This document shows positions 604 through 24,740 of a DNA stretch of 64,000 nucleotides, piece after piece (positions within the stretch are counted from its first letter, which is position 1; every line of letters starts with the position of its first letter). The translations under genes and the position numbers were made by a program. Source of the DNA: Thermoanaerobaculia bacterium. Lineage in GTDB: Bacteria; Acidobacteriota; Thermoanaerobaculia; Multivoradales; UBA5704. A model generated the notes under the pieces. The model saw nothing but the letters and a program-made list of their open reading frames with translations, made no database searches and had not been told where the DNA came from. The stretch lies in NCBI GenBank assembly GCA_045807625.1, contig JBJMHA010000044.1:12319-76318 (forward strand), in the 5' to 3' direction.

Positions 604-3600
604 TCAATCCTCGTCCGTTCGCACGGTCCTGCCGAGGCACTCCGCGAGATGTGTGGCGACGGCCTGGACGAAAGGCTCCTGAAGCAGTGTCTCGTGGTGG
701 CCGGGGATCTCATGGATCTCCAGGGGCTGCTCCACCAGGCGGGACCACCCCTTGGTGAGGTCGTCGACCTCGTACCCGGCGCCGTGCAGCACGTCGAGGA
801 ATTCCCGATCCGCTTCCACGGTGCGAAAGAAGGTGACGGGCCCGGGATAGACCTCCGGCTGATAGCGCTCCGAAGCCAGGTCGCGGGCCTTGACCGCGGC
901 CAGGTAGCGCTCGACCCAGGGCAGGTCCAGCTCCTCGGGGACGAGGCCGGCCGCCTTGCCGTGGTCCAGGGCGAGCCGGATTCCTTCCTCCCGGGGGAGC
1001 GCCGTGATCTCCTCGAAGGAGATGACGAGGGGCACGCCCGCCCGGCGCGCCTGCTCGCGCAGCTCCTGGGCGACCAGGACCCCCTCGTTCAGGCGGCCCG
1101 ACTGCGCCTTGCGGCCCGGCGCTCCGCCGTCCAGCAGGGCGAGCAGGGCGAGCTCTTCGCCCGCGTGCCGGAGCTGCTGGGCCATCTCGAAGGCCACCTT
1201 GGCGCCGAACGAGTAGCCGCCGATGCGGTAGGGGCCCCGCGGCTGGACGATGCGGACAGCCTCGATGTACTGCCGCGCCAGGTCCTCGATCGCGAGCTCG
1301 CGGGAGCCGTCCCCGCTGCCCAGGTGGACCGCCTGCAGGCCGTAGAAGGGCTGGTCCGGCCCCAGGTGCTGGGAGAGGGCGTAGTAGCAGAGCACCTCGC
1401 CGCCGAGCGGATGCACACAGAAGAGGGGAGGCTTCGCACCGAGCGGCTGGATGGGCACCAGCGGCGACTCGGGAGCCCGCTCTCCCCCCTCGTCCGCGAG
1501 GATCCGGGCGAGCTTCTCCACCGTGCCCGCCCGGTAGAGGGTGGCGAGCGGGAGGGAGATCCCGAAGCGCTTGCGGATCTTGGCCATCAGCATCACCACC
1601 AGCAGCGAGTGGCCGCCCAGCGCGAAGAAGTCCTGGTCCACCCCGATCGGACGCATCTTGAGGAGGTCTTCCCAGATGTGCAGCAACTCGAGCTCGAGCA
1701 GCGTGCGGGGGGCGGCGGCCTCGCGGCGGGTCAGCTCCGGCCCGGCTCCCGGCTCCGGCAGCCGGGAGCGGTCGAGCTTGCCGTTGGGAGTCAGCGGCAG
1801 GGACTCCAACTCCACGAAGTGGGAGGGGACCATGTAGTCCGGCAGGTATTCCTTGAGCCAGCCCCGCAGCTCGGTCTCCGGCAGGCCGGGTCGACGGACG
1901 GCCAGGTAGGCGACCAGCCGGGTCTCTCCCGGTTCCTTCTGGCGGGCTGCGACGGCGACCTCCCGCACGTCGGGATGGCAGGCGAGAGCGGCCTCCACCT
2001 CGCCCATCTCGATCCGGAAGCCGCGGATCTTGACCTGGTGGTCGATGCGGCCCAGGAACTCCAGGTTGCCGTCGGGCCGCAGCCGGCCCAGGTCACCTGT
2101 GCGGTAGAGGCGCGAGCCCGGCTCCGGAGCGAAGGGATCGGGCAGGAACCGCTCGGCGGTCAGGTCCGGCCGGTGGAGGTAGCCGCGGGCCAGGCCGGCG
2201 CCCTCGATGCACAGCTCGCCGGGCGTGCCGGCGGGGACCAAGCCGCCCCGGGGATCGAGCAGCAGGACGCGGAGGTTGGGCAGCGGCCTGCCGAGCGGCA
2301 CCACGGCGCCGGCCCCCTGGGGCGGGACGGCGTCCACGCTGAAGGTCAGCGCTCCTACCGTGCTCTCGGTGGGGCCGTAGTGGTTGGCGATGGCGAGCTG
2401 CGGCGCCCGCGCCCGGAGGGACTCGACCTGCCCCCAGTAGCTCGCTTCACCACCGAGGATCAGCCGCCGCCGCGGCAGGGCGGGCGCCGGCCGGGAGGTC
2501 GACTGGAGCGCCATCAGATGGGAGGGCACGATCTTCAGGCAGTCGATCGGGTGGGCGGTGAAATAGTCCGCTGCCGCATCGGGATCGCCCGCTGTGCGCT
2601 CGGCGAGGACATGCAGGCAGCCGCCCGTCGCGAAGGCCGCGAAGACCGAGGTGTTGCCCAGATCGGCCGCAAAGGTGGACACCGTGGCGAACGAGGAGCA
2701 GGCGCCGAGCCCGAGACGGTGGATGACGCCGCCGACGTAGTTGACGATCTGCCGGTGCTCCACCGCCACCCCCTTGGGCGGGCCCGTGGAGCCCGAGGTG
2801 AACAGCACGTAGGCCAGACTCTCTGGGAAGAGCCCGGCCGGCCGCGGGGGCGCCTCCGGAGCGCGGGCGATCTTTGCGGCCCGGGTGTCCAGGCAGACCT
2901 TCTCGAAGGCCCCCGCGGGCAGCTCCTCGGCCAGCGCCGAGCGGGTCAGGACCACCCCGAGCCGCGCCGCCTCGATGGTCAGGCCCAGGCGCCGCTTCGG
3001 GTACATCGGGTCCATCGGTACGTAGGCGCCACCGCTCTTGAGCACGCCCAACAGGGCCACGACGAGATCGAGGGAGCGATCTAGGTAGAGGCCGACGGGG
3101 GTCTCCGGTCCCACCCCCAGCCCATGCAGGAGGTGCGCGACCTGGTTGGCCCGGCGGTCCAGGTCGCCGTAGGTCAGCGTCCGGCCGTCGGAGACCACGG
3201 CGGGGGCGTCGGCGTGGCGCTCCGCCTGGAGCTCGAAGAGCTCGTGCAGCAGGCCCGCCGGCGCCACGGGGGCTTCCGGCTCGCGCCAACCGGCGAGGAT
3301 CTGCTCGCGCTCGTCCGGGGTGAGCACCTCCAGGGTCGAGAGGGGGAGATCCGGATCGGCGAGAGCCGACTCCAGGAGCCGTGCGAAGCGTGCGTGGAGA
3401 CGCTCCACCGTCGCCACGTCGAACAGCTCGGCGGCGAACGCCCAGGCGCCGCTGAACGCCTCGCCCTCGGGCTGCACCGTCAGCATGAGGTCGAAACGCA
3501 CCAGCGTCTCGGCGAGCCCGAAGTCGCGGACGACCAGGGCCGACCGCAGGGGCTCCGCCGGAGGCTCGCCGGCGGCGCTGTTGTAGTTGAAGACCACCTG

Positions 3601-6600
3601 GAAGAGGGGGGAGTGGCTCGTCCCGCGTTCCGGCTTCAGCTCTTCGACCAGCTTGTCGAAGGGGAGGTCCTGATGGGCGATCCCCCCCACCGCTCCCTCG
3701 CGGACCCGGCGCAGCAGGGTGCCGAAATCGGGGTCGCCGGCGGCGTTCGTTCGCAGCACCAGCATGTTGATGAAGAACCCGATCAGATCCTCCACCTCCG
3801 ACCGCGTGCGCCCGGCCACGTCGGAGCCGACGACCACGTCGGCTTCGCCGGTGACGCGGTGGAGGAGGGCCACGAAGGCGGCCAGCAGGGTCATGAACGG
3901 CGTCGCCGAGTGGCGCAGGCTCACGGCCCGCACCGCGCGCGCGAGGGGCTCGTCGAGCCGGAACGGGGAGTACACGCCGCGGTGCGTGCGGACGGCGGGC
4001 TCGGGCCGGTCGGCGGGCAGGCGGAAGATCCCTTCCAGGTCCCCCAGCCGTCCGCGCCAGTACCGTAGCTGCGCCTCCAGCACCTCGCCCTGGAGCCACC
4101 GCCGCTGCCAGTGCGCGAAGTCGGCGTACTGCACGGGCAGCTCGCGCAGGGGGGAGGGGCGGCCGCTGGAGAAGGCGTGGTAGAGGCTCACCACCTCGTG
4201 GCGCAGGATGCCCATGGACCAGGCGTCGGAGGCGAGATGGTGCAGCGTCAGCAGCAACGCGTGCTCGCCGGCGGCGAGGCGCACGAGCTGCGCCCGCAGC
4301 AGCGGCTCGGCCGCGAGGTCGAAGGGGCGCCGGGCCGCAGCCACGGCGAGCCGTCGCGCCTCCTCCCCGCGGGGGGCCTCCGGCAGGCCGCTCAGGTCGA
4401 TCTGCGGCAGCGCGACCTCCGCGGCCGGACGGATCACCTGCCGCGGCTGCCCGTCGGCGGCGGGGAACAGGGTCCGCAGGATCTCGTGGCGCCGGACCAT
4501 TTCGCTCAGCACGCGGCGCAGAGCGACGGTCTCCAGCGGTCCGGACAGGCGCTGGAAGACCGGCACGTTATAGGCTGCGGACTCCGGTTCGAGCTGCTGC
4601 AGGAACCAGAGGCGCTGCTGGGCGAACGACAGGGGCAGCTCCTGGTCTCGCGGCACCGGCACGATGGGCGGCGCCTCCAGGCCCTCGCCGGCTCGTACGG
4701 CCCGCTCGATCTCGGCCGCGAGACGGCCCAGCACGGGCGCGTCGAACAGGCTGCGCAGCGGCAGGTCCACCTGGAAGGCCTCGCGGATGCGGGACAGCAC
4801 CTGGGTCGCGAGCAGCGAGTGCCCGCCCAGCTTGAAGAAGTCGTCGAAGACGCCGATCCCCGTCCGGCCGAGGGCCCCTTCCCAGATCTGCGCCAGCACC
4901 TCCTCGAAGACGTTGCGCGGGGCGACGTGCTCGCGCGCCGAATCCCCCTCGTCCTCGCGCGCCGCCAGAGCCGCGCGGTCGACCTTGCCGTTGCGCGTCA
5001 GGGGGAGGAAGTCGAGGATCGCGAACGAGGCGGGGATCATGTAGCCCGGCAGCCGGTCGCCGAGGAAGGCACGCAGGTCCTGCAGGTCGAGGGCTCCCCT
5101 TTCGCGCGCCACCAGGCAGGCAGCGAGGCGCAACTCGCCCGGCGTCCTCTCGCGCGTCACCACCACGGCCTGGGCCACCGCCGGGTGCTGGGCGAGCGCC
5201 GCTTCGATCTCCTCCAGCTCGATCCGGTAGCCGCGGACCTTGACCTGGAAGTCGCTCCGGCCGAGGAATTCGACCGTGCCGTCCGCGGCGCCGCGGGCGA
5301 GGTCGCCGGTCCTGTACATGCGCCCGCCGGGCACGGTGGAGAAGGGGTCGGGGACGAATCGCTCGGCGGTGAGGTCGGGACGGCCCAGATAGCCGCGGGC
5401 CACGCCGGCGCCGGCGATGTAGAGCTGGCCCGGAGCCATGACGGGCGCCGGCCGCAGATGGCGGTCGAGCAGATACGCGCGCGCGTTGGCGATCGGCCGG
5501 CCGATGGGAAGGGTACGGAAGAGATCCATCCCCTCGCCCGCGGTGGCGCGCCGGGTCAGGGCACCCACTGTGGTCTCCGTGGGGCCGTAGTGGTTGAGCA
5601 CCGCGCACTCCGTGCCGGCGGACAGCAGCTCCTCCGTCCACTCCCGGCGCGAAGCCTCGCCACCCAGCACCAGGAGACGGCGGGGCAGGGCCCAGGGCTG
5701 GCCGGCCGTCTGCAGGGCCTGGAGATGCGAGGGGACGATCTTCAGGCAGTCGATGGCATGGTCGCGCAGGTACCCGGCGAAGGCGCGCGGGTCGGTGGCG
5801 GCCTCCTGGGACAGGACGTGCAGCGTGCCGCCGTTCACCAGCGACGGGAACACGGAGGTGTAGCCCAGATCGGCCGCGAAGGTCGACACCATGGCGTACG
5901 AGGCGCCGTCCGGCAGTCCGAGGACCGCGCTGATGGCGCGCGCGTAGTTGGCGAGTTGGCGGTGCTCGACGGCCACTCCTTTCGGCCGGCCCGTGGAGCC
6001 CGAGGTGAAGATGACGTAGGCCAGGTTCTCTGGCCGCGCGCCGCCGTCGAAGGGGAGGCCGTCGTCCTCACCATTCTCGCTGCCGTCGTCCAGCGCCAGC
6101 AACTCGACGCCGGCCGCCGGCAACCGGTCCAGCAGCGCCCGCTCGGTGAGGACGATGCGCGCGCCGCTGTCCTCGATCATCGCCGCCAGGCGTTCGCGCG
6201 GCTGCGCCGGGTCGAGGGGGACGAAGGCGCCTCCGGCCTTGAGCACCGCCAGCGCCGCGACGATCATGCGTTGGGAGCGGTCGAGACAGACGACCGCCCT
6301 CTCCTCGGGCCGGACCCCCAGCGCGTGCAGCCGGCGGGCGAGCCGGTTGGCGGCGCCGTCGAGCTGGGAAAAGTCGAGCCAGGCCTCCACCGCGACGACG
6401 GCGGTCCGCCCGGGCACCCGCCGCGCCTGCCCGGCGAACAGGTGGTGGACGCAGGCGCCGCCGAAATCTCGCTCCTCGCTGCTCCAAGCCGCGAGGAGGC
6501 GGGCGCTTTCGGCTCCGGGCACGAGATCGAGCTCCCCGGCGGCGGCGGCGGGCCGGCGCGCTGCGTCCGCCAGCAGGGTGAGAAAGGCCTCCGCGAGGCG

Positions 6601-7794
6601 CGCGACGTCGCCGGAGTCGAAGCGGGCCGGATCGTAACGCAACTCCCCGCGGAGGCCGTCCTCGCCGGGGGTCAGGACCAGGCGCAGCTTGACGCCGCTC
6701 GTCGCCAAGTGCCAGGCGCGCAGGGGGAACGCCCCGGTGGCGGGAGCCAGGAAGAGCTCGACGGCCGGGGGAGCCGGCTCCTCGTCCTCGCCGGCCGGCG
6801 GCGGCTGGTAGAACTCCTGCCATCTCTCCGCCTCGGCGCTCTCGGCCGCGATCTTCTTGACCAGGCTGGAGAACGGCAGGCCGGCGTCGAACGCCGCTCG
6901 CACCGGCAGAGTGCGGGCCATGGGTCCCATCACCCCCCGGAGCTCCTCGAACCGGCGGCCGTCGAAGACGCGGTGGACGATGATCTCGTCCTGGCCGCTC
7001 CAGCGCCAGAGGAGCGTCTGCCAGGCCGCCAGCAGGAAGTCGCCGTCCTGGACGCCCAGGCCTGCCGTGGCCTCGCCCAGCGCGCGGACGGTCTCCGGGC
7101 CGATCGCGAACGAGGCGAGGCTGTGGAGACCGCGGGGGGCGGCCGTCCGCTCGAAGGGGAGGCGTGGGACGGCCGCGCTGGGCGCGGGCTGCCGGCGCCA
7201 GAACTCGGGGCCTTCGACCTCCGCCTCGTCCTCGATGAGCTGATACTGCCACTCCGAGAACTGCACGTACTGGACCGCCTCCTCCGCGTTCCTGCCAACG
7301 GCCGTCGCCTCGGTTGCGAGCTCCGCGGCGAGGTTGCGCAGCGTCCACTCGTCGGCACAGAGGACGGGCAGAGCGAGGAGCAGGGCACGCCCACCGGCCC
7401 AGGTGCACAGCGTCGCCCGGAGCAGTGGCCCCCGGGCGAGGTCGAGCGCGGGCTCGGGCCGCGAGAGGAGCAACTCGTGCCACTCCCCGGGCGTGCCGGG
7501 GAAGGGCTCAGGCCGGGTCTCGGTCCGCCACTCGAGCTCGCCGGCCTCCTGGACGACCTGGAGGGGCAACTGCATTCCCGGCCGCATCCGGAACGTGGTC
7601 CGCAGACCTTCGTGGCGGGCGACGACCCTCTGCAGAGCCTGCCGGAGCAGGTCCGGATCCACCGGAGCCGGCACCTCCATGGCACACCGCGCCAGGCGGG
7701 AGGGATCCGCGGCGGCAGCCGGCCAGAGACGCTTCTGCTGCGGCGACAGGCGGAACCCGGCGATGGGCTCCCCGGAGACGGTTTCTACGGACAT
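604..7794 (-). CDS. Terminal NRPS, two modules: interface-type C-like domain - A(Asp-like) - T - C - A(Asp-like) - T - TE
   Basis: 2396-aa track ORF with ATG 7794 and TGA 604-606. The translation shows LPVLCAD in place of HHxxxDG and two A domains (LAYVIFTSGSTGRPKG; LAYVLFTSGSTGPPKG; NHYGPTE twice). It also shows two carriers (FFKLGGHSLL; FFALGGHSLL), a C domain with HHLASDAWS and a thioesterase GYSFG. Confidence 0.95.
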   Translation of the reverse strand: MSVETVSGEPIAGFRLSPQQKRLWPAAAADPSRLARCAMEVPAPVDPDLLRQALQRVVARHEGLRTTFRMRPGMQLPLQVVQEAGELEWRTETRPEPFPGTPGEWHELLLSRPEPALDLARGPLLRATLCTWAGGRALLLALPVLCADEWTLRNLAAELATEATAVGRNAEEAVQYVQFSEWQYQLIEDEAEVEGPEFWRRQPAPSAAVPRLPFERTAAPRGLHSLASFAIGPETVRALGEATAGLGVQDGDFLLAAWQTLLWRWSGQDEIIVHRVFDGRRFEELRGVMGPMARTLPVRAAFDAGLPFSSLVKKIAAESAEAERWQEFYQPPPAGEDEEPAPPAVELFLAPATGAFPLRAWHLATSGVKLRLVLTPGEDGLRGELRYDPARFDSGDVARLAEAFLTLLADAARRPAAAAGELDLVPGAESARLLAAWSSEERDFGGACVHHLFAGQARRVPGRTAVVAVEAWLDFSQLDGAANRLARRLHALGVRPEERAVVCLDRSQRMIVAALAVLKAGGAFVPLDPAQPRERLAAMIEDSGARIVLTERALLDRLPAAGVELLALDDGSENGEDDGLPFDGGARPENLAYVIFTSGSTGRPKGVAVEHRQLANYARAISAVLGLPDGASYAMVSTFAADLGYTSVFPSLVNGGTLHVLSQEAATDPRAFAGYLRDHAIDCLKIVPSHLQALQTAGQPWALPRRLLVLGGEASRREWTEELLSAGTECAVLNHYGPTETTVGALTRRATAGEGMDLFRTLPIGRPIANARAYLLDRHLRPAPVMAPGQLYIAGAGVARGYLGRPDLTAERFVPDPFSTVPGGRMYRTGDLARGAADGTVEFLGRSDFQVKVRGYRIELEEIEAALAQHPAVAQAVVVTRERTPGELRLAACLVARERGALDLQDLRAFLGDRLPGYMIPASFAILDFLPLTRNGKVDRAALAAREDEGDSAREHVAPRNVFEEVLAQIWEGALGRTGIGVFDDFFKLGGHSLLATQVLSRIREAFQVDLPLRSLFDAPVLGRLAAEIERAVRAGEGLEAPPIVPVPRDQELPLSFAQQRLWFLQQLEPESAAYNVPVFQRLSGPLETVALRRVLSEMVRRHEILRTLFPAADGQPRQVIRPAAEVALPQIDLSGLPEAPRGEEARRLAVAAARRPFDLAAEPLLRAQLVRLAAGEHALLLTLHHLASDAWSMGILRHEVVSLYHAFSSGRPSPLRELPVQYADFAHWQRRWLQGEVLEAQLRYWRGRLGDLEGIFRLPADRPEPAVRTHRGVYSPFRLDEPLARAVRAVSLRHSATPFMTLLAAFVALLHRVTGEADVVVGSDVAGRTRSEVEDLIGFFINMLVLRTNAAGDPDFGTLLRRVREGAVGGIAHQDLPFDKLVEELKPERGTSHSPLFQVVFNYNSAAGEPPAEPLRSALVVRDFGLAETLVRFDLMLTVQPEGEAFSGAWAFAAELFDVATVERLHARFARLLESALADPDLPLSTLEVLTPDEREQILAGWREPEAPVAPAGLLHELFELQAERHADAPAVVSDGRTLTYGDLDRRANQVAHLLHGLGVGPETPVGLYLDRSLDLVVALLGVLKSGGAYVPMDPMYPKRRLGLTIEAARLGVVLTRSALAEELPAGAFEKVCLDTRAAKIARAPEAPPRPAGLFPESLAYVLFTSGSTGPPKGVAVEHRQIVNYVGGVIHRLGLGACSSFATVSTFAADLGNTSVFAAFATGGCLHVLAERTAGDPDAAADYFTAHPIDCLKIVPSHLMALQSTSRPAPALPRRRLILGGEASYWGQVESLRARAPQLAIANHYGPTESTVGALTFSVDAVPPQGAGAVVPLGRPLPNLRVLLLDPRGGLVPAGTPGELCIEGAGLARGYLHRPDLTAERFLPDPFAPEPGSRLYRTGDLGRLRPDGNLEFLGRIDHQVKIRGFRIEMGEVEAALACHPDVREVAVAARQKEPGETRLVAYLAVRRPGLPETELRGWLKEYLPDYMVPSHFVELESLPLTPNGKLDRSRLPEPGAGPELTRREAAAPRTLLELELLHIWEDLLKMRPIGVDQDFFALGGHSLLVVMLMAKIRKRFGISLPLATLYRAGTVEKLARILADEGGERAPESPLVPIQPLGAKPPLFCVHPLGGEVLCYYALSQHLGPDQPFYGLQAVHLGSGDGSRELAIEDLARQYIEAVRIVQPRGPYRIGGYSFGAKVAFEMAQQLRHAGEELALLALLDGGAPGRKAQSGRLNEGVLVAQELREQARRAGVPLVISFEEITALPREEGIRLALDHGKAAGLVPEELDLPWVERYLAAVKARDLASERYQPEVYPGPVTFFRTVEADREFLDVLHGAGYEVDDLTKGWSRLVEQPLEIHEIPGHHETLLQEPFVQAVATHLAECLGRTVRTDED
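620..1470 (-). other. Thioesterase (TE) release domain
   Basis: GGYSFG motif with nucleophile Ser codon at 1210-1212. It covers the last ~280 aa after the final carrier domain and has GHH near the C-terminus. Confidence 0.85.
1500..1710 (-). other. Peptidyl carrier (T) domain
   Basis: DFFALGGHSLL; phosphopantetheine Ser codon at 1606-1608. Confidence 0.9.
1765..3260 (-). other. Adenylation domain, hand-read code DLTKIGHVGK (Asp-like)
   Basis: Cores LTYGDLDRRANQVA, TSGSTGPPKG (~2775-2805), FAADLGNTS, DCLKIVPS, LILGGEAS, NHYGPTESTVG and LPLTPNGKLDR. The code was read by aligning to GrsA-PheA numbering. Confidence 0.7.
3330..4665 (-). other. Condensation (C) domain, canonical
   Basis: Starts LPLSFAQQRLWFLQQLEP; HHLASDAWS with HH codons at 4237-4242. 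Confidence 0.85.
4710..4920 (-). other. Peptidyl carrier (T) domain
   Basis: DFFKLGGHSLL; Ser codon at 4816-4818. Confidence 0.9.
4975..6450 (-). other. Adenylation domain, hand-read code DLTKVGHVGK (Asp-like)
   Basis: Cores LAYVIFTSGSTGRPKG (~5975-6020), FAADLGYTS, DCLKIVPS, LVLGGEAS, NHYGPTETTVG and LPLTRNGKVDR. Confidence 0.7.
6470..7770 (-). other. C-superfamily domain lacking the catalytic His motif (interface-type, I-like)
   Basis: N-terminal FRLSPQQKRLW. At the HHxxxDG position the sequence is LPVLCADEW (codons 7351-7371). About 430 aa sit directly in front of an Asp-like A domain and directly after the free-standing hydroxylase gene. Confidence 0.7.
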
Positions 7795-7800
7795 CGATGA

Positions 7801-7804
7801 CCTC
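7801..7804 (-). promoter_or_regulatory. Putative Shine-Dalgarno (GAGG) for the terminal NRPS
   Basis: Plus cctc is GAGG on the minus strand, 6 nt upstream of ATG 7794, inside the 24-nt intergenic gap 7795..7818. Confidence 0.5.
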
Positions 7805-7818
7805 GTTCTCGAAGCGGA

Positions 7819-8868
7819 TCAGGCGGCCATGGAGCTCTTCTCGAACAGCTCCCCCATGGCGACGACGATCTTGCGCTCGCCCTGGAACGGATTGCGGGCG
7901 TGCGCGGTGAGCATGTTATCCACCATCAGGATGTCCCCCTCCTGCCAGGGGAACTGGACGGCGTTCTGCCAGTAGAGATCCAGGATGTGCTGGACCAGGG
8001 AGTCTTCGATCGGCATGCCGTCGCCGTAGCAAACGCTGCGCGGCAGGCCATCCTTGCCCAGGAGCTCCTCCAGGGACTCGCGCACCCCGGGATCCAGGCA
8101 GGCGGCGTGGTGGAGCTGGATCTGGTTGAAGAACACCGTCTCGCCGGTCTTCGGATGCACCATAACAGCCGGCGCGGTCTGGCGCGTGCGCAGGCTCCCT
8201 TCCGGCGTCCATTCGAAGGCCAGGTCGGCGCGGTGGCAGTACTCCTCGACCGCGGACCGGTCGTCGGTGCGGAAGAAGTCCTGCCAGCTCACGTCGAGGC
8301 CCTCGACGAAATGCCGCACGTACATCAGACCCTTGTCCGCGAACCGCTGGCGCACCTCGGGAGCGAGCTGGGAGTAGATCCGCCGGCAGTCGACGATGGG
8401 GGTTTCGCCCCCCTCCCGGGATGGCGTGACGCAGTAGAACCACTGCATCATCGGCCACCGGTGCATGTGTGAGCTCTCGTTGTGGAACAGGATGGTCTTG
8501 TCGTTAGGATAGGGCGTCGACTTGTAGACCCTCTCGCCCTTGGCCTCGCGAGGCAGATCTCCATACTCGCCGAACAGGTTGGGGCAGATCGCCGCGGCGA
8601 ACGCCTCGAACGCGTTCACCGAGGCGAGGCCGAAACCGCGGAACAGGATGGCTCCGTGCCGCCGCAGCTTCTCGTCGAGGAACGCCGTGTTGGCGTGCGC
8701 CCAGCCCACGAGGTCCACGTCCTCCGTCGCGGGCTGGAGCACGAGCGGGAGCTCGGCGTCGTTGAGAGAGCTGGTCCGGACCAGCTCTTCGCCGGAGAAG
8801 GCGACCGCCTTCGGGGCCACCTTGGTGAACTTCTGGAACTTGTCGCGCAGATCGCCTGACTGCGTCAT
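7819..8868 (-). CDS. Fe(II)/2-oxoglutarate dioxygenase, TauD/TfdA family, SyrP-like NRPS-associated aminoacyl beta-hydroxylase (free-standing)
   Basis: 349-aa ORF with ATG 8868 and TGA 7819-7821. The facial triad H-x-E is in FHNESSH (codons 8476-8484), with the distal His in LTAHARNPF (7900-7902), followed by GERK. It shares blocks with the fused domain at 27969..28990: ILFRGFG, GGETPIVD, FPWQEGD and DN.LTAH.RNPF.GERK. Confidence 0.9.
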   Translation of the reverse strand: MTQSGDLRDKFQKFTKVAPKAVAFSGEELVRTSSLNDAELPLVLQPATEDVDLVGWAHANTAFLDEKLRRHGAILFRGFGLASVNAFEAFAAAICPNLFGEYGDLPREAKGERVYKSTPYPNDKTILFHNESSHMHRWPMMQWFYCVTPSREGGETPIVDCRRIYSQLAPEVRQRFADKGLMYVRHFVEGLDVSWQDFFRTDDRSAVEEYCHRADLAFEWTPEGSLRTRQTAPAVMVHPKTGETVFFNQIQLHHAACLDPGVRESLEELLGKDGLPRSVCYGDGMPIEDSLVQHILDLYWQNAVQFPWQEGDILMVDNMLTAHARNPFQGERKIVVAMGELFEKSSMAA

Positions 8869-8875
8869 GATCGGG

Positions 8876-8882
8876 TTCCTCC
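8876..8882 (-). promoter_or_regulatory. Shine-Dalgarno (GGAGGAA) for the hydroxylase gene
   Basis: Plus ttcctcc at 8876-8882, 7 nt upstream of ATG 8868, in the 42-nt gap 8869..8910 (the largest intergenic gap in the window). Confidence 0.65.
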
Positions 8883-8910
8883 GTTTGCGCGGGAGTCGGC
8901 CATTGCCGGC

Positions 8911-11900
8911 TCAGACCCTCGCCACAATGGTTTTGGTTTTCAGGAATTCCTGGAGCTTCGACGCGTCGCGCTCCCGTCGCCGCGCGGTCTCGTCGCCGTC
9001 CGTCACCAGGGAGCTCAGCCGCGCGTCCGGGCGCTCCAGCAACCGGCGCAGCAGCGCCTCGAAGCGTCCATGCAGAGTCTCGATGCGGGAGGGCTCGAAC
9101 AGGTCGGTGCTGTACATCCAGGAACCGGACAGGCCGGCACCGTCTTCGAGCACGATGAGCATCAGATCGAACCGGACCAGCTCCTCCGCCGCCGGAACCT
9201 CGGACAGCGACAGTCCGAGGCTCTCCAGGGGAGTGCCTTCGACGCTGTGCCGCGGAGCGTTGTTGAAGTTCAGCACCACCTGGAAGAGAGGCCTCTGGCT
9301 CCCCTGGTCAGGGCGCAGCTCCCGGACCAGCCGGTCGTAGGAGACGTCCTGGTGGGCGAACGCTCCCAGCACCACCTCGCGGCAGCGCCGCAGCAGCTCG
9401 CGGAAGGTGGGATCCCCCGCAAGGTCCATGCGCATCACCAGCATGTTGATGAAGAAGCCGATCAACCCCTCCGTCTGCCCCTGGGAGCGGCCGGCCATGT
9501 CGGCTCCCACCACCACGTCGTCCTGGGCGGTGTAGCGGTGGATCAGCAGGCTCAGCACGGCGAGCAGGAGCATGAAGAAGGTGACGCCTTCGCTGCGGCA
9601 GAGCTGGCGCAGCTCCGCGGTCTCCTCGGCGGAAAGCCGGAAGGACCGGTGCCGTCCCCGGTGCGTCGGCCGGTCGGGCCGCGGCCGGTCGGATGGCAGC
9701 TCCACCAGGGGAGGAAGCGCGCCGAGCTGCGCCCGCCAATAGGCGAGCTGCCCGCGCAGCGCCTCGCCCTGCATGCGCTCGCGCTGCCAGGCGGCGAAGT
9801 CGCCATACTGGATCTCCAACTCCGGCAGTGGTGAGGGGGCGCCCTGCCGGCGGGCGCCATAGAGCGTGGTGGCCTCCCGCACCAGGACGCCCAGCGACCA
9901 GCCGTCCGCCGCGATGTGGTGCAGCGCCATCAACAGCACGTGGCTGTCGCCGGTCTCCCGCAGGAGGCAGGTGCGGGCGAGCGGCCCCCGGCCGAGGTCG
10001 AACGGCCGGAGGCCCACCTCGGAGGCCAGACGCAGGACCTCGCCGTCACGGGCGTCGGCCGCCAGCGCCGCCAGGTCCACGACGGGGAGCGGCCATTCAC
10101 CATCTGGCACGGCCACCTGGACGGCCTCGTCGGCGAGCGCCTCGAAGCGGGTCCGGAGAACCTCGTGCCGGGCCACCACCTCCCCCAGACTCCAGCGTAG
10201 GGCCTCGACGTCCAGCCGGCCGGTCAGGCGCAGGGCGAGAGGCAGGTTGTAGGCACCGCTGCCGGGCTCGAGCTGGTGGAGGAACCAGAGGCGTTGCTGG
10301 GCGTCCGAAAGGGGGGCCGCCGCGCCGTCCGGCCGTCGTGGGATCCGCTCGACGGCTCCGGCCGCCCCGCCCTGCCGGTGCGCCTCGATCGCCGCCGCCA
10401 TCTCCAGCAGCCGCGGACGCTCGAAGATCAGCCTCAGGGGGAGGTCTAGGCCGAAGGCGTCACGCAGGCGGGACACCAATTGGATGGCCAGCAGGGAGTG
10501 ACCGCCCCGGTCGAAGAAGTCGTCGTCCCTCCCGACCCCTTCGGTGCCGAGTAGCTGCGACCAGATCGCGGCGAGCGTCCCCTCCACCTCGCCATGCGGG
10601 GCGAGGGGAACGTCGCCCTGCTCCGGTCCGGTCCGGTCCGGACCAGGGAGCGCCCGGCGGTCCACCTTGCCGCTGGGCGTGAGCGGCAGCCGGTCCAGGA
10701 ACAGGACGTGGGACGGGACCATGTAGCCCGGCAGGGAGCCGCGCAGAAAGCCGCGCAGCTCCCGGCCCAGCGCGGGCTCCACCGGCGTCGTCCCGGCGGG
10801 GACCACCCAGGCGACGAGGCGCCGGTCCCCCGGTCTCACCTCACGCACGTCCACGACCGCCTGTCCGACCGCCGGATGGTGGGCCAGGTGGGACTCGATC
10901 TCCCCCAGCTCGATGCGATGGGTGCGGATCTTCACCTGCTGGTCGGCCCGCCGCAGGAACTCCAGGGAGCCGTCGGGGCGCCAGCGCGCCAGGTCGCCCG
11001 TCCGGTAGAGGCGCTGTCCCGTCCCTCGCCCTCCCAGGCTACTCAGCGGGTGCGGAAGGAAGGCCGACGCCGTCGATCCCGGACGGTCGAGGTACCCGCG
11101 GGTCACTCCAGAGCCGCCGAGATACAGGTCGCCGGGCACGCCGGCGGGGACCGGCCGCAGGGAGGCGTCGAGGACGAACGCCTCGGCCCCGCCCAGGGGG
11201 CGGCCAATGGACGCTCCGGTTGACGGGAACGCGGCCGGCCTCCCGGCCACGAGAGGGAACACGGTGGCGGTGATGGTCGTCTCGGTTGGACCATAGCAGG
11301 AGAGGAAGAGGCCGCCGTCGTCCGCCACCGCCCGCCACTGCTCCAGCAGATCGCTTCCCAGGCTCTCGCCGCCGGTGATCCAGACGCGGACCGGCGGCCG
11401 GGGGGCGAAGCCGCGGTCCAGCTCGCGGAAGAGCTGGCGCATCAGCTCCATCGGCACTTCCACGACGGTCACCCTCTGCTCGGCGCAGAAGACCAGGAGC
11501 TCGGCCGGCGACAGGCGTCCAGGCGCGGGATGGAGCACCAGGGAGGCGCCGCTGGCGAGGGTGGGGTAGATCTGTTCCGCGGCGGCGTCGAAGGAAATGG
11601 ACAGGAACTGCAAGACCCGGTCGCCGGCGCCGAGACCGGCCACCCGGGCCAGAGCGGACGTGTAGCGGGCGAGCCCGCCATGATGGGCCACGACCCCCTT
11701 CGGCCGCCCGGTGGATCCCGAGGTGTAGATCACGTAGGCCGCCTGCGCCGGGTCGATGCCGCCTCGCGTGAGGTCGCCCGGCGCGCTGCTCGCGAGCTCG
11801 CCGAAGCAGATGCGGCGGACCGGGCGGCCGGTGGCGGGCAGTGCCTGGAGCAGGGACGGCTGGGTGAGCAGCAGCTCGATCCCGGAGTCGTCGAGCAGGA

Positions 11901-14900
11901 TGGCCAGGCGCTCGGCCGGGTACGCGGGATCGAGCGGGACGTAGGCCCCTCCGGCCTTGAGCACGCCGAGGAGCCCCACGATCATCTCCGGAGAGCGCTC
12001 CATGCAGAGGCCGACCCGCGCCTCGGTCCTCACCCCCAGGGCGACCAGTCTGCGGGCGAGGTGCTCCGTCCGCGCCACGAGGTCGCCATAGGTGAGCCGA
12101 TCCCCGCCGCAGACCAGCGCGACCGCGTCGGGGTCGCGCGCGGCCTGAGCCTCGATCAGGCTGACCACGTCGCCGCCGTCGTATCCGGCCTGCGGAGCGG
12201 CGCTCCACTCGCCGGCCAACTGCCAGATCTCCGCCCGGGAGAGCGCCCGGAGGTCCGCCAAGAGGGCCTGGGGATCGGCGGCGGCCGCCTCCAGAAGGTT
12301 GGCCCAGTGCTCCGCCAGGCGGCCCACCGTGGGCGCGTCGAACAGGTCGGTGCTGTAGTCGAAGCGGGTGGCGAGCCGGCCATCGGCCATCTCGGTGACC
12401 GCCAGGGCGAGATCGAGCTTCGCGGGCACATGCTCGCCCCCCAGGAACGGGGAGAAGGAGAGATCCCCCAGCTCCACGCCGCCGGTGCCGGCGTTCTGGA
12501 GCACGAAGAGGACCTGGAACAGGGGCGAGCTCGCGAGATCGCGTTCGGGCTGGATCTCAGCCACGATCTTCTCGAAGGGAAAATCCTGGTACGTGTAAGC
12601 GCCGAGCGCCGCTTCCCGCACCCTGGCCAGCATATCGGTGAACCGGTCCGTACCGGCCAGCCGCCCGCGCAGCACCAGGGTGTTGGCGAAGAAGCCGATG
12701 AGGGGCTCCAGCTCCGCGCAGCCGCGGTTCGCGATGGGCGTGCCCACCAGCAGATCCGCTTGCCCGGTGCTCCGGAAGAGCAGGACGTAAAGCGCGCTCA
12801 GCAGGGTCATGAACAGGGTCGTCCCCTGCTCCCGGCCCAGCGCGGCGAGCGTGGCGGTGAGGCGGGCGGGCAGCACGATCCGCCGGCTGGCGCCGCGGAA
12901 CGAGAGCGCCGCCGGTCGCGGCCGGTCCGCCGGCAACTCCAGCACGTGGGGAGCCCCCGCGAGCTGCTCCCGCCAGTAGGCGAGATGGGCCTCCAGGACC
13001 GGACCGCGCAGCCACTCCTTCTGCCAGGCCGCGAAGTCCGCGTACTGGACGGACAGCTCCGGAAGGGGGGAGGGCTGGTTCCGCACGAAGGCCTGATAGA
13101 GAGTCACGAGCTCGCGGACGAGGACGTCCATGGACCAGCCGTCGCTCACGATGTGGTGGAGCGTGAGGACGATGACGTGCTCGGCCGGCCCTAGGCGGAG
13201 CAGCAGTGTCCGCAGAAGGGGAGCGCGGTCGAGGGCGAACGGGCGGGCAACCTCGGCGGCGGCCAGCCGGCCGGCCACGGTTTCCCGCGCCGTCTCCGGC
13301 AGGGCGGAGAGGTCCACCAGGGGCAGGACGAGACGGAGCTCCGGCAGGATGCGCTGGTAGGGCCGCCCCTGCTCGTTCTCGAAGACCGTCCGCAGCGCCT
13401 CGTGCCGCCGCACCAGCTCGTCCACGCTCCGCTCCAGGGCGGCCAGCTCCAGAGGTCCCCGCAGGCGCAGAGCGGAGTCGATGTTGTACACCGGCAACCC
13501 GGGCTCGAGCTGGTCCAGGAACCAGAGCCGTTCCTGGGCGAAGGAGAGGACCTCGCGGCCGGTGCGAGGGATCCGCCGGATGGGCGGCACGGCCAACCCC
13601 GCCTGGGCGGAACGCGCCTCCTGGATACGGGGCGCCAGGTCGCTCAGGACCGGCGTCTCGAAGATCCAGCGCAAGGGCATCTCCACGCCGAATGCGGCGC
13701 GCACCCGCGAGACGAGCCGGGCCGCCAGGAGGGAGTGCCCGCCCAACTCGAAGAAACCGTCGCCCGCCCCCACCCGCTCCACCTTGAGGAGATCGGACCA
13801 GAGAGCGGCCAGGAGCTCCTCGGCCGGCGTCCGCAGCGCTGCATGTCCACCGGGGGACAGGGCTTCGGAAAGGTTGGGAGCGGGCAGCGCGCGACGATCG
13901 ATCTTGCCGCTCGAGTTGAGCGGCAGCGTGTCGAGGAAGACGAAATGGGCCGGGACCTCGTACTCCGGCAGCACCTCGCGCAGGCCGGCCCGCAGGTCGC
14001 TCGCGCTCAGCTCCGCGCCGTCGGCGGGGACCACGTAGCCGACCAGCCGCTTCTCGCCCGCCACCTCTTGTGCGGTCACCACCGCCGCGTGCACGCCGGC
14101 CAGCCGGGCCAGGGCCACTTCCACCTCGCCGAGCTCGATGCGGAAGCCGCGGACCTTGACCTGGTGGTCGAGCCGGCCGAGGAACTGGAGCGTTCCGTCC
14201 GCCCGCCACGCGACCCGGTCCCCCGTGCGGTAGAGCCGCCCCCCCGGCTCCGTCGCGAAGGGGTCCGGGATGAAGGCCTCCGCGGTCTTCGCGGAATCCT
14301 TCAGGTATCCCCGGCCCACACCGATACCGGAGACGAAGAGCTCCCCCGGAACCCCGACCGGCACCAGCGCGAGCGCGGCATCGAGCAGGTAGAGGCGGAA
14401 GTTGTCCATCGTCCGGCCGATCGGCGCGACGGAATCCACGTCGTCGGGGGGATGACTCACGACCCAGTGGGAGACGTTGTCCGAGCACTCTGTCGGGCCG
14501 TAGGCATTCAACAGCGGGACGTGCGGATAGAGGCCGAGCCAGCGGCGGCAGAGGGCGGCGGGAAGCGCCTCGCCCGTCGGCGAGAGCCAGCGTAGCGCGC
14601 GCAGGGCGGGGCGGTCGTCCTCCCGCCGTTCGATCCCGTCGAGCATCACCCGCAGCAGCGAGGGAACGGTCTCGAGGATCGTGACGCCCTCGCGGTCGAC
14701 CGCCGCGAGCAGTCGTTCCGGATCGCGCGCCGTCTCGTCCGGGAAGATCCGCACCCGTCCGCCGACGAGGAGAGCGGCGAGGAACTCCCAGACGGAGATG
14801 TCGAAGCACTGTGATGCCGTCTGGGCGATCAGGTCGCGATCGTTGAGCCCGAGCTCCGTGACCTTCGCGCGGAGGTGGTTCAGCATGCCGCGATGCTCGA

Positions 14901-17900
14901 CCATGGCCCCCTTGGGAGTGCCGGTCGAGCCGGAGGTGTAGATGACGTAGGCGAGTGACTCCGGCCATGTCCGCGAGGGCGGATTGGCGTCGTCATCGCC
15001 GTCCACGGTCGCGAGCTCGAGCGGCAGGAGCACCGCCCGCTGATCCTCCTGCAACTCGGCGAGCGCCGCCGCGAGGCGCGGCGCGTGCCCGGCGCCGGCC
15101 AGAGCCCATCCGGCACCGCTGCCGGTCAGGATCTGCCGCCATCGCGACGGCGGGTGATGGGGGTCGAGCGGCAGATAGGCGCCGCCCGCCTTGAACACCG
15201 CCAGGATCGCGACCAGGAACGCGCGACCGCGGTCAGCGAGCAGGGCCACCAGCCGGTCGTCGCCGACTCCCGATACGGCCAGGTGCCGCGCCAAGCGGTT
15301 GGCCTGGCGGTTGAGATCCCCGTAGGTCAGGATGCCGTCGTCATCGATCACGGCCACCGATTGCGGGTGGTGCGCCGCCTGGAGCTCGAAGCTGCGCACC
15401 ATCGGAGTCGCCGCGATCCCCACGGCCACATCGTTCCATTCTGCCGTCATCTGGTGCCGTTCGGCCGGCGACAGGAGGGGGATCTCGGGCAGGCGCAGGC
15501 CGGGGTCGGCCGCCACCGCCTCGGCGATACGGGCGAGGCTGCCAAGGAACCGGTCCACGGTGACCGCATCGAAGAGGTCGGTGGAGTATTGGGCCGTGCC
15601 CCGCAACGAGCCCGCCGACTCCTGGAAGAACAGGGTGAGGTCGAACTGCGCCGCGGTCATCTGCGCCGGAATTCCGAGCAGTCGTACGCCGGGGAGCTCG
15701 AAGACCGTTCGCGTGGGGGTCTGCAGTACCAGCATCACCTGGAACAACGGCGAGCGGGCGAGATTGCGCTCGGGCAGCTCCTCGACGAGCTTCTCGAAGG
15801 GCATGTCCTGGTGCGCCTGGGCCTGGAGGACCGTCTCACGCGCCCGCGCCAGGAGATCGCGGAACGGGGGCGCACCCGACAGGTCGGTCCGCAGCACCAG
15901 GGTGTTGACGAAGAACCCGATCAGGTTTTCGGTCTCCGTCCGGTTTCGATTGGCCACCGGGCAGCCGATGCTCAGGTCCTCGGAATGGGTGTATCGGTAG
16001 AGAAAAGCCTGGAAGATCGCCAGCAGCACCATGAAGGTCGTGGCACCCTGCTCGCGTCCGAGCTGTTGCAGGTCCGCCGCGACCGCCGGCGACCATGCGA
16101 AGGTGCGCGTGTCTCCCCGCGAGCTCTGGACCGCCGGCCGCGGCCGGTCGGTGGGCAGGTCGAGCGCCGGCGGTACGCCGGCCAATTGGCGACACCAATA
16201 GGCGAGTTGGCGGTCGAGCACGCTGTCCCGCAGCCAGGCGCGCTGCCAGACCGCGAAGTCGGCGTACTGGACGGGCAGCTCTGGCAGCGGCGACGGCTCC
16301 CCTTGGAGAAAGGCGCTATAGAGCGCGACCGTCTCCTGCGCCAGGACGCCCGCCGACCAGCCGTCGGAGGCGATGTGGTGCACGGCAAGGAACAGATGGT
16401 GGACCTCCTCCTCCAGGCGCAGGAGCACGGCCCGCAAAGGTGCCCCGCTCTCCAGGTCGAAGGGCCGGACGACCTCCCGGGAGGCCAGACGGCGAGCTTC
16501 GCCCTGGCGGAGAGCCGGCGGCAGCGCCGAGAGGTCCATCAGTGGGAATGGCACCTCCGCCGCGGCGAGCACGACCTGCCGGGGCTCTCCGTCCACGGTG
16601 CGGAAGACGGTGCGCAGGACCTCATGGCGCCGCACGATCTCCCGCAGGCTGAGGGCCAGCACGGGGACGTGCAGCCGGCCCTCGAGCCGGAAGAAATTGA
16701 CCAGATGGTAGGCCGGGTTGCCCGGCTGGAGGCGGTCCAGGAACCAGAGGCGCTGCTGGCCGTAGGAGAGCGGCAGCCCGGCGGCATCGCGTACTACACG
16801 GACCAGGGGCGGCGGCGCGAGCTCCCCGCCGTCCGCCTCTGTGGAGCGGCTCGCGAGCCGCAGGCCATGGACCGCCGGGGCCAGCTCCGCGGGAGTCGGG
16901 CGCTCGAAGAGAAGGCGCAGAGGGATCTCGATCGCGAGGCGCTCCCGCAGGCGGGAGAGCACGCGGATGCCCAGCAGGGAGTCGCCCCCGAGCTCGGCGA
17001 AGGCGTCGTGCACGCCGACGCGCTCGAGGCCGAGCACCTCCTGCCAGACGGATGCGATCTCCCGTTCCAGCTCGTCACGGGGCGCCACGTAGGCCTGGGG
17101 CAGGTCCGGCCGCTGGTGGGAGGCGGCGGAGGCCGCCGCGTCTCCCTGCGCGAGGCGCTGCGCCAAGTCGTCGGTGGTCTCCGCGAGCTCGATCACCGTC
17201 TCCAGATCTTGCGGAGAGACCACCACCTGCGCGGCACCGAGGGCAAGGGCACCGCCGAGCGCCTCGATGCCCTCGGCGGGGAGGATGGCCCGTGCGAGCC
17301 GCCGCCGTCGTTGCTCCGGAGATTCGAAGGGGATCTCCGTCCGCGCGGCCATGCCGACCTCTGCCCAGGCGCTCCAGGCCAATGCCACGACCGGCGTACG
17401 ACCATAGGAGGCGCGGGATTGGGCGAAGGCGTCGAGGAAGGAGTTGGCGGCGCAATAGTCGACCTCGCCGACGCCACCGGTGACGGCGGTCAGCGAAGAG
17501 CAGAGCACGAAGAAGTCCAGGGGACGCGGGCCGAGCAGGGCATCGAGCACGAGCGTGCCCCGCACCTTCGGCGCCAGCACGGCCGCCGCTCCGGACTCAT
17601 CCTTGAGCTCGATGAGCCCGCCCCCGGGAACGCCGGCAGCATGGACGACCCCTGCGATGGGACCGAACCGCTCCTCGGCCCGGTGCAGGCAGTCCGCCAT
17701 CGCTCCAGGGTCGGCGACGTCCGCCGCCAGGGCCAGGACTTCGGCCCCCAGCTCCTCCAGCGAGCGAATGGCCCGGAGCGCACCCTCGTCGGCAGGGCCG
17801 GAGCGCGAGACGAGGACCAGGCGGGCCCGGATCCGCCGCGCCAGCTCCCCTGCCAGCGTCAACCCGATACCCCCCAGGCCGCCTGTGATCAGATAGACGC

Positions 17901-24300: not shown

Positions 24301-24740
24301 AGCACGGGGATCGCGAGCGAGGCCTGCCGGTGCACCAGTTGGAGGGGCTCGCTGTAGGTGGTGAGGTCGAAGGACGTCCTCAGCACGGCGTGGCGGCGCA
24401 CGACCTGGTCCACGGCCCGTTGCAGGAGCGCCTGCGCGAACGGGAGCGACAGGTGCCAGCTGTTGACGTTGTGGTAGGCCGGCGTCGGCTGATCCGGCGT
24501 CAGCTCCATGTGGTAGAGCATCCCGAGCTGCACCATGGACAGCGGGAACGCGTCTTCCAGCCCCGGCGGCAGCTTGGCGCGGTCTTCCTCCGCGATCATG
24601 CAGAAGGGCGGCACCTCAGGGACGGCCGGTCCGGCGGCCGGCTGAACCGGCGCGGCCTTGCGGCGCTTCTCCAGCATCAGCTCCAGCAGCCGCTGGCGCT
24701 CCGGAGACAGCGAGGAGGCTCGATCCAGGGCGCCGCTCAT
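21321..24740 (-). CDS. NRPS, one module: divergent C - A(Asx, Asn-like code) - T
   Basis: The track ORF is 21321..24902. I place the start at ATG 24740 (MSGALDRASSLSPERQRLL..) because it forms an ATGA overlap with the upstream stop (24737-24739) and the extra 54 aa are Arg/Gly junk. Motifs seen are PHPISDGWS, LAYVMYTSGSTGTPKG and FFELGGDSLL. Confidence 0.9.
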   Translation of the reverse strand: MSGALDRASSLSPERQRLLELMLEKRRKAAPVQPAAGPAVPEVPPFCMIAEEDRAKLPPGLEDAFPLSMVQLGMLYHMELTPDQPTPAYHNVNSWHLSLPFAQALLQRAVDQVVRRHAVLRTSFDLTTYSEPLQLVHRQASLAIPVLDLRGLAPETQERVIEEFIEQENRTLVDLARPPLVHFTVHRRSEERFQFTLTEPHPISDGWSTMSTLSEIAFLYSAFLRGETPLEQPPPATSYRHFIFMERKMLESAEARAFWEGKLAGCSVLTLPRWPEEFRGAAPRDSKIYYPVPREKVERLQGLAREVGVPLKSVLLASYLKVLSLLSGQRDLLTGLVFHGRPDTLDGDQVRGLFLNTLPLRFELPAGSWLDLIRSTFAAEVEMLPYRQYPIPAVQRRWGPGVLFETAFSYLHFHAIGAAVEQGKVVPARGGHSDYSVTHYKLLVTFESSAVSLGRLRLFPEFDTREIGTEQVHALCGYILRALDAMLESPEERHDARSLLSDTERHQVAVQWNETGSGYERDRCVHELFERQAARSPESLAITAGERRLTYGELNAWANRLARHLRRTGIQPEDRVGLLLERSPEMVIAILAVLKAGGAYVSLDPGYPRQRHLLVLGESGASRVLTTSRRVAGPAPDGLETLLLDELLPALAGERKDDSPPVTDPENLAYVMYTSGSTGTPKGVMVPHRGLVNYLSWCIGAYGIQAGWSAPVHSSLAFDLTLTSLFAPLLSGGTVALLPEKASGDALGRLLQEPGGDRLVKLTPAHVALLDAQIPAGQLADAARILVIGGEALRAETLAPWRRHAPNTRLFNEYGPTETVVGCTVHEVSPGTPAAGSVAIGRPIANTRVYILGRDLHLVPVGSPGELYIGGDGVARGYHRRPELTAGRFVPDPFGTEPGGRLYRTGDLARHLPDGTLEFLGRNDDQVKIRGYRIEPGEVESCLEDHAGIREAVVMARQDGPGERRLVAYVVPNDPGLKPAEVRSFLRLRLPDYMVPAVVVPLPELPLTSNGKVDRARLPAPDEGRREIDQSYLAPRSEMEQRLAAVWREVLRLERVGVSDSFFELGGDSLLLLQVYKKMQALGVKVPITDLFRYPTVGALAQRLSDGAAVPARPEPDRRGGRASDAQRQREIRQRRRSS
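21430..21640 (-). other. Peptidyl carrier (T) domain
   Basis: SFFELGGDSLL; Ser codon at 21534-21536. Confidence 0.9.
21695..23190 (-). other. Adenylation domain, hand-read code DLTKVGEVGK (Asp/Asn family, Asn-like)
   Basis: Cores TSGSTGTPKG (~22683-22740), LAFDLTLTS, LVKLTPAH, LVIGGEAL, NEYGPTETVVG and LPLTSNGKVDR. It differs at one position from the canonical Asn code DLTKLGEVGK. Confidence 0.6.
23220..24565 (-). other. Divergent condensation domain (first His of HHxxxDG replaced: PHPISDG)
   Basis: It starts EDAFPLSMVQLGMLYH (the DCL-like N-terminal motif type). The motif TEPHPISDGWS is at codons 24123-24143. A ~60-aa N-terminal extension precedes it. Confidence 0.75.

Follow-up and report, generated by a model that had tools for sequence, protein, structure and literature searches.

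The window analyzed here, a stretch of 64,000 nucleotides (nt) of contig JBJMHA010000044.1 from a Thermoanaerobaculia bacterium, carries a nonribosomal peptide synthetase (NRPS) operon with two TauD-type hydroxylases. One of these is encoded by a gene of its own, G9, and the other (G5T) is fused to the end of gene G5. The explanation that we favor, with a probability of about 0.68, is that G9 is an Fe(II)/2-oxoglutarate-dependent aspartyl β-hydroxylase of a type normally found fused to the C terminus of an NRPS, behind a condensation (C) domain. Here it would be made as a separate polypeptide and paired with the interface (I) domain of G10, while a second pair, G5T and the I domain of G6, would serve Asn. 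All genes in the window lie on the minus strand, as do all window coordinates given below, and they form a single long operon of ∼70% G+C. G9 and the fused copy in G5 are the only TauD genes in the window. Domains were mapped by using Pfam, NCBIfam, and in-window phmmer searches.

According to this explanation, the first adenylation (A) domain of G10 would load L-Asp onto the first carrier (T) domain of the same protein. The noncatalytic I domain at the N terminus of G10 would recruit G9, which would then hydroxylate C3 of the carrier-bound Asp. Recruitment of a hydroxylase to a carrier-bound substrate is the function proposed for I domains in the literature. The terminal C domain of G8 would condense the upstream chain with the hydroxy-Asp thioester across the protein boundary, and G10 would add a second, probably unmodified, Asp before its TE domain releases the chain. 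G5T and G6 would do likewise for Asn. Thus, the operon most likely makes one β-hydroxy-Asp (β-OH-Asp) and at least one β-hydroxy-Asn (β-OH-Asn) by the predicted action of two substrate-dedicated hydroxylase/I-domain pairs.

The G9 gene (positions 7819–8868) encodes a complete TauD/TfdA protein of 349 amino acids (aa), which matches PF02668 over residues 47–337 with a score of 166.9 bits (cut-off 27). The conserved ligands include an iron triad formed by H129, E131, and H323 and the 2-oxoglutarate-binding Arg, R332. These four residues and R325 are invariant in 13 aligned homologs, both window enzymes included.

An earlier note on this DNA had placed G9 at a split module, in the slot that a fused hydroxylase would occupy, and the domain map bears this out. 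Upstream, the PKS/NRPS gene G8 (8911–21303; PKS, polyketide synthase; KS-AT-KR-T-C-A-T-C-A-T-C) ends in a C domain (8959–10326) that carries the catalytic motif HHIAADGWS and supplies the condensation part of the split Asp module. This domain scores 616 bits with a hidden Markov model (HMM) for C domains and 210 bits with an HMM for I domains; the former was built from the window's own C domains and the latter without window sequences. Downstream, G10 (604–7794; I-A-T-C-A-T-TE) begins with an I domain (6469–7776) in which LPVLCAD replaces HHxxxDG and which scores 364 bits with the I-domain HMM versus 140 bits with the C-domain HMM. It is followed by an Asp-specific A domain (4984–6438; code DLTKVGHVGK) and a T domain (4714–4896) that is the presumed carrier of the hydroxylated Asp. 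The rest of G10 (604–4653; C-A-T-TE) is an ordinary Asp module (code DLTKIGHVGK) that lacks an I domain and precedes release. Specificity codes were read by alignment to a GrsA fragment, which gave the correct Phe code when checked.

G9 is not covalently joined to the C domain that precedes it. The C-terminal tail of G8 (8911–8958; ..DASKLQEFLKTKTIVARV) is similar to the initial half of the linker that joins C and TauD in fused homologs, and it ends in a TGA stop codon. A stop-free spacer of 42 nt (8869–8910) follows, in frame with both G8 and G9. It includes a ribosome-binding site, GGAGGA (8877–8882), located 8 nt before the ATG of G9. At its N terminus, G9 has 25 residues (DLRDKFQKFTKVAPKAVAFSGEELV) that can be aligned to the C-TauD linkers of two fused proteins, G5 and CcsFGH, the latter being the fused hydroxylase protein of the cyanochelin B cluster. 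A similar K-[LF]-x-x-[FL]-x-K motif is present in the tails of G8, G2, and cyanochelin CcsJ, such that at the protein level the linker motif is duplicated in the G8 tail and the G9 head. A scan found no promoter-like or terminator-like sites around G9, which fits co-transcription with its neighbors. We conclude that G9 is encoded as a separate gene and is genuinely free-standing, the product of its own start codon.

To place both window enzymes among their relatives, 402 TauD domains were HMM-trimmed, aligned, and used to construct a neighbor-joining tree with Kimura-corrected distances and 100 bootstraps. Clade A (n = 246, bootstrap 87/100) includes G9, the CcsFGH domain, and the fused enzymes of siderophore-like clusters from Janthinobacterium, Azospirillum, and Eleftheria; 92 of its members are free and 145 are fused. 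Clade B (n = 144, 99/100) contains G5T, with 113 free and 27 fused members. Clade C (n = 12, 97/100) includes CcsK, which is the self-standing hydroxylase of the cyanochelin B cluster, together with the stand-alone enzymes of the same Janthinobacterium, Azospirillum, and Eleftheria clusters (5 free, 7 fused). With the CcsFGH domain and the three fused proteobacterial enzymes as proxy anchors, G9 therefore groups with NRPS-fused Asp hydroxylases (87/100), and it lies outside clade C (97/100, or 193/200 with an OrbG-like anchor). The proteobacterial anchor clusters were identified by architecture and gene order.

The OrbG-like anchor is a TauD protein of Burkholderia sp. SFA1 that joins clade C (193/200) and whose gene lies in the order sigma factor–MbtH–TauD–ABC transporter. 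We take this to be the order of the ornibactin cluster, in which the TauD gene is orbG. Since this enzyme falls in clade C, the clade was taken as the stand-alone (TβH-like) type. Within clade A, G9 nests among ∼35–40 sequences that are all free-standing, where internal nodes are weakly supported. G9 is thus, by its predicted affinities, a free-standing member of the integrated Asp type.

Database searches gave a similar picture. Among 5.8 billion proteins, the best relatives of G9 are 55%–63% identical and are free proteins of ∼350 aa mixed with C-TauD fusions; the best matches are 346–350 aa long. No orthologous cluster was found, as the best relative is 63% identical in this protein set and 62% identical among species-representative genomes. 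Of the 150 top-ranked cluster representatives (50% identity) retrieved with G9, approximately 140 are C-terminal NRPS fusions, in a library that may favor long representatives. Among species-representative genomes, 79 of the 80 best loci have a fused hydroxylase. Searches of solved structures returned only two distant TauD-like matches (E about 1e-35 to 1e-37) and none from the G9 subfamily. The top-scoring representatives for G9 are two proteins of ∼680 aa with tandem TauD domains (P0241 and P0242), which fall in clade C.

The partners of these enzymes also differ between clades. At clade A loci, the downstream NRPS starts with an LPxLCAD I domain in 62 of 63 cases, and His322, indicative of Asp, is found in 58 of 59 readable A-domain codes; G10 conforms in both respects. 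The proteobacterial fused enzymes likewise precede I-domain NRPSs. Two of the three stand-alone proteobacterial enzymes (Janthinobacterium and Azospirillum) precede an NRPS with a catalytic HH-motif C domain and an Asp code, and for the third (Eleftheria) there is no readable motif at the downstream C-domain position. A separate case was observed in a Pyrinomonadaceae metagenome-assembled genome (DASTTB010000024.1, locus L089, 17611–21056), where a clade C hydroxylase is flanked by a free C protein of 498 aa and by an NRPS whose first two domains are an I domain (LPALCVD) and an A domain with a Gln code (DAWQFGLID). This arrangement suggests I-domain-linked hydroxylation of Gln.

The fused hydroxylase of the window belongs to a different lineage. 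G5 (27966–30764; T-C-TauD) ends in the G5T domain (27969–28949), which is 45% identical to G9. Most of its nearest relatives are free proteins, ∼345 aa long, that come from cyanobacteria and Acidobacteriota. The next gene, G6 (24737–27949; I-A-T), begins with an I domain (26651–27949; motif CSALTAD) that scores 369 bits with the I-domain HMM versus 128 bits with the C-domain HMM. The A domain of G6 has the code DLTKVGEVCK, which is Asn-like rather than Asp-like. Glu at position 322 is a hallmark of Asn A-domain codes, and the G6-type code matches the textbook Asn code at nine of 10 positions. In each of three contexts of G5T relatives that were read directly, the TauD gene is followed by an NRPS with the order I(LPALC[AST]D)-A(DLT[KH]IGEVCK)-T.

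A metagenome scan for clade B enzymes (≥50% identity) yielded 66 loci, 36 with fused and 28 with free hydroxylases. As in G6, Glu322 is present in all 31 readable partner A codes of clade B loci (DLTKxGEV[C/G]K), several of which are the textbook Asn code DLTKVGEVGK. The clade of the hydroxylase, and not its fusion state, therefore tracks the Asp or Asn-like code of the partner A domain. G5T and G6 would accordingly constitute a paralogous hydroxylase/I-domain pair of another clade, with an Asn-code partner and Asn as the probable substrate. This association of I domains with a clade of Asn-type hydroxylases apparently has not been described so far. CloD, from the clovibactin system, could not be linked to clade B as an anchor, because the best Eleftheria match to a clade B query is a fused clade A gene. 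The 66 loci also include seven C-TauD didomain proteins that are outside any larger NRPS (L111, L113, L116, L120, L131, L144, and L159), with ∼480–720 aa before the TauD match. Such proteins are intermediate between the full fusion and the free hydroxylase.

The closest characterized system that we compared is the cyanochelin B cluster of Leptolyngbya sp. NIES-3755 (AP017310.1), which was located by tblastn of plasmids. Its fused hydroxylase CcsFGH precedes CcsI and has been assigned to L-threo (3S) β-OH-Asp, whereas the self-standing CcsK, encoded between CcsJ and CcsL, has been assigned to the 3R configuration (D-threo after epimerization) (PMC12628792). As in the window, a fused and a free hydroxylase are present in one operon, with the free one encoded between an NRPS gene and a second NRPS that begins with I(LPSLCAD)-A(Asp)-T. 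Moreover, CcsL and G3 of the window agree in both architecture (I-A-T-E) and length (1505 aa). In cyanochelin B there is therefore a direct precedent for the coexistence of the two layouts within an operon and for a free enzyme in the same slot. The two systems differ in the free enzyme, as CcsK is in clade C whereas G9 is in clade A. Identity to the fused CcsFGH domain is 56.6% for G9 and 46.8% for G5T, and identity to CcsK is 41.8% and 38.4%, respectively. They also differ in their partners: the cyanochelin proteins CcsI and CcsL each begin with an I domain and carry the Asp code DLTKIGHVGK, whereas the partner of the fused enzyme in the window is Asn-like. The slot itself is variable, because CcsJ and CcsK are split in cyanochelin B but are a single fused open reading frame, CcsJK, in cyanochelin C, for which L-erythro β-OH-Asp has been reported in a preprint.

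Further comparisons place G9 relative to the named hydroxylase types. The integrated type (IβH_Asp), which is associated with an I domain, is attributed to Reitz et al. 2019 in later papers (PMC12971057, PMC12230676, PMC7100376). Like enzymes of this type, G9 belongs to the same clade according to the proxy anchors, directly follows a C domain, and has a partner NRPS with a noncatalytic C-like domain and an Asp-code A domain. It differs in that it is not fused, being split from the C domain by a stop codon, the 42-nt spacer, and a start codon of its own. The TβH_Asp enzymes (DelD, CucE, PtcA, and OrbG) resemble G9 in being encoded by separate genes within NRPS clusters, but they belong to another clade by the proxy anchors, and in the proteobacterial examples examined the first domain of the partner NRPS is a catalytic HH-motif C domain, not an I domain. 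SyrP, the syringomycin enzyme studied by Singh and coworkers in 2008, reportedly hydroxylates carrier-bound Asp. To our knowledge, its gene is not wedged in a split module. SyrP is a stand-alone enzyme like G9, and according to published clade placement, stand-alone SyrP-type (SBH_Asp) enzymes nest inside the integrated IBH_Asp clade (PMC12971057). The system in the window thus is of a known hydroxylase/I-domain kind, with close precedents in cyanochelin B and, according to the literature, SyrP.

An uncharacterized cluster on plasmid pNOS3756_1 of Nostoc sp. NIES-3756 also has one hydroxylase each from clades A and B. As in the window, each precedes an I-domain NRPS, with a His322 code for clade A and a Glu322 code for clade B. 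However, the fusion states are reversed, because the clade A enzyme is fused and the clade B enzyme is free. The latter is a TauD protein of 342 aa encoded after a separate C protein of 506 aa, and the two genes overlap by 4 nt.

These findings bear on how stereochemistry is predicted from gene organization. The earlier note had pointed out that fused and free hydroxylases occur in one operon, which is correct, and had predicted from this layout that both diastereomers would be made. It relied on the rule that fused and stand-alone enzymes give opposite configurations, which later papers cite from Reitz et al. 2019 as 3S for fused and 3R for stand-alone enzymes. The rule rests on two phylogenetic subtypes, and G9 is in fused-type clade A, not in stand-alone clade C; the inference from layout is therefore unsupported. 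The note had also proposed that finding both hydroxylases in the same clade would undo the prediction. They are in fact in different clades (G9 in A and G5T in B), and what fails instead is the premise that the stand-alone enzyme is of the erythro-making type. Because fusion state varies inside clades A, B, and C, layout is uninformative, and whether an enzyme is fused or free says nothing about stereochemistry. The layout is evolutionarily fluid, and the published rule has exceptions. Clade membership predicts a 3S (L-threo) configuration for the putative β-OH-Asp, and it gives no prediction for Asn. The two enzymes appear to differ mainly in clade and in probable substrate, Asp versus Asn.

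Several points weigh against the explanation that we favor. Clades A and C are anchored by one characterized cluster, that of cyanochelin B, and by proteobacterial clusters that are uncharacterized. The tree was made by neighbor joining only, has low support inside clade A, and was sampled with both window proteins as seeds. The probable Asn substrate is read from the specificity code, and the functions of the window proteins are predicted from sequence. Finally, the L-erythro β-OH-Asp reported for cyanochelin C indicates that clade does not predict stereochemistry without exception.

A different reason for G9 to be free could be that it serves several modules. It might dock on the I domain of G10 and also on those of G3, G2, or both, which a tethered enzyme could not reach. 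Four domains of the window score as I type. In addition to those of G10 and G6, these are the N-terminal domain of G3 (40199–41503; LPALCAD; 378 bits with the I-domain HMM, 176 bits with the C-domain HMM) and an internal domain of G2 (44824–45876; APALALD; 211 and 100 bits). HHxxxDG is lost in all four, and all cluster with the N-terminal domains of CcsI and CcsL in an I clade of the four and ∼100 others that is separated from catalytic C outgroups (86/100). G3 (37022–41539) has the order I-A(DLTKIGEVCK)-T-E and is without an adjacent hydroxylase gene, as is the G2 domain, which follows a catalytic C domain in a C-I-A-T module with a Thr code (DFWNIGMV-K). The tail of G2 (41536–41600; ..EEKFTQIRRKVVSTR) is linker-like and ends exactly where a TauD domain would start, and the G2/G3 junction looks like one that has lost its hydroxylase.

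The presence of four I-type domains and only two hydroxylase genes in the window would suit an enzyme that serves several sites. However, the Asn-like code of G3 accompanies clade B, not clade A, in all 31 of the other loci with readable codes, and the I-domain tree, within which the window domains are too divergent for placement (all relevant nodes <30/100), assigned G3 to neither hydroxylase type. In addition, the window covers 64 kb of a 126.7-kb contig, and another hydroxylase may lie outside it. The I domains of G3 and G2 may be served in trans, may be relics, or may depend on a gene outside the window. We consider service of several modules by G9 to be unlikely, and even if correct it would complement the favored explanation rather than replace it. 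A broader proposal, which we advance only tentatively, is that clade B is an undescribed family of I-domain-dependent asparaginyl β-hydroxylases and that the I domain is a general landing pad for hydroxylases, with a role that is not specific to Asp and His. Two substrate-dedicated hydroxylases would then serve all four I-type domains, the orphan I-A(Asn)-T-E and internal C-I-A(Thr-code)-T modules included, with at least one acting in trans at a distance.

It is very unlikely that G9 is instead of the stand-alone subtype, resembling DelD or CucE, and acts with C3 stereochemistry opposite to that of the fused enzyme, such that the product carries both β-OH-Asx diastereomers as cupriachelin does. 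G9 is indeed free-standing, it is only 45% identical to G5T and lies in a different clade, and the free CcsK of cyanochelin B, in the same slot, is assigned the opposite C3 configuration to its fused counterpart. Nevertheless, G9 is outside the clade that holds CcsK and the OrbG-like enzyme, and is 57% identical to the fused cyanochelin domain versus 42% to CcsK. The I domain of G10 is the kind of companion found with fused proteobacterial enzymes, whereas the stand-alone ones sampled precede a catalytic HH-motif C domain. The Asn-like code beside the fused enzyme further implies that the two enzymes probably act on different amino acids.

Equally improbable is that G8 and G9 are one C-TauD gene broken at the TGA (8911–8913) by a sequencing error or a very recent nonsense mutation, so that no genuine stand-alone enzyme exists. 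In favor of this reading, the frame of the G8 stop continues through 14 sense codons, uninterrupted by another stop, to the ATG of G9; a fused hydroxylase is present in 79 of 80 genome relatives; and the N terminus of G9 can be aligned to the linker seen in fused forms. Against it, the shared frame has a one-in-three chance, 14 stop-free codons are unremarkable at 70% G+C, GGAGGA and the ATG are well placed, and G9 nests among ∼35–40 free proteins of 346–350 aa that have their N terminus in common. In addition, two relatives from this group, L001 and L002, follow an NRPS gene with a gap that is not a multiple of three, and read-through would give two linker motifs where fused homologs have one. 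A simple broken fusion was largely rejected for these reasons.

The locus is of practical interest because the C3 configuration of β-OH-Asp is deduced, by genome-mining tools and in several structure papers, from the fused or free state of the hydroxylase. It is a clear counter-example to the use of layout alone, with a free enzyme of a fused-type clade and a fused enzyme of an often-free clade, and fusion state flips often within every clade. More reliable predictors appear to be the hydroxylase clade and residue 322 of the partner A domain (His in 58/59 for clade A, Glu in 31/31 for clade B). If the link between clade B and Asn is true, it would provide a simple genomic rule for predicting β-OH-Asn in nonribosomal peptides. 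The most useful by-product of the analysis is this association of clade with A-domain code, along with what appears to be an Asn hydroxylase clade linked to I domains.

The remaining genes of the operon have several other features. G1 (52757 to beyond 64000; ...T-C-A-T-C-A-T-Cy-A(Cys-like)-Ox-T) has a frame that is open to the window edge (63754–64000) and encodes the end of an A domain, indicating that the first NRPS gene is cut by the window. Its Cy-A(Cys-like)-Ox-T portion is a thiazole module with a nitroreductase-type Ox domain inserted within the A domain. G2 (41536–52884) has the order KS-AT-KR-DH-T-C-[I-like]-A(Thr code)-T-C. G4 (30758–37021; C-A(Gln)-T-C-FkbH) ends in an FkbH domain (within 30758–32560) that is matched by TIGR01686 (E = 6.8e-91) and is not detected by Pfam. 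Together with the N-terminal T domain of G5, it forms a glycerate-type loading module inside the NRPS, right before C-TauD.

G7 (21321–24902; C-A-T) shares with G3 and G6 the Asn-like code DLTK[IV]GEVCK, with Glu at position 322, but its module is without an I domain. The C domain of G7 (∼23200–24570) has the active-site motif PHPISDGWS, with Pro instead of the first His of HHxxxDG. Downstream from G10, positions ∼1–500 of the window encode an N terminus resembling duplicated MacB/FtsX permeases. Permeases of this family, which is abundant in Acidobacteriota, flank several related clusters (L001, L003, L005, and L088).

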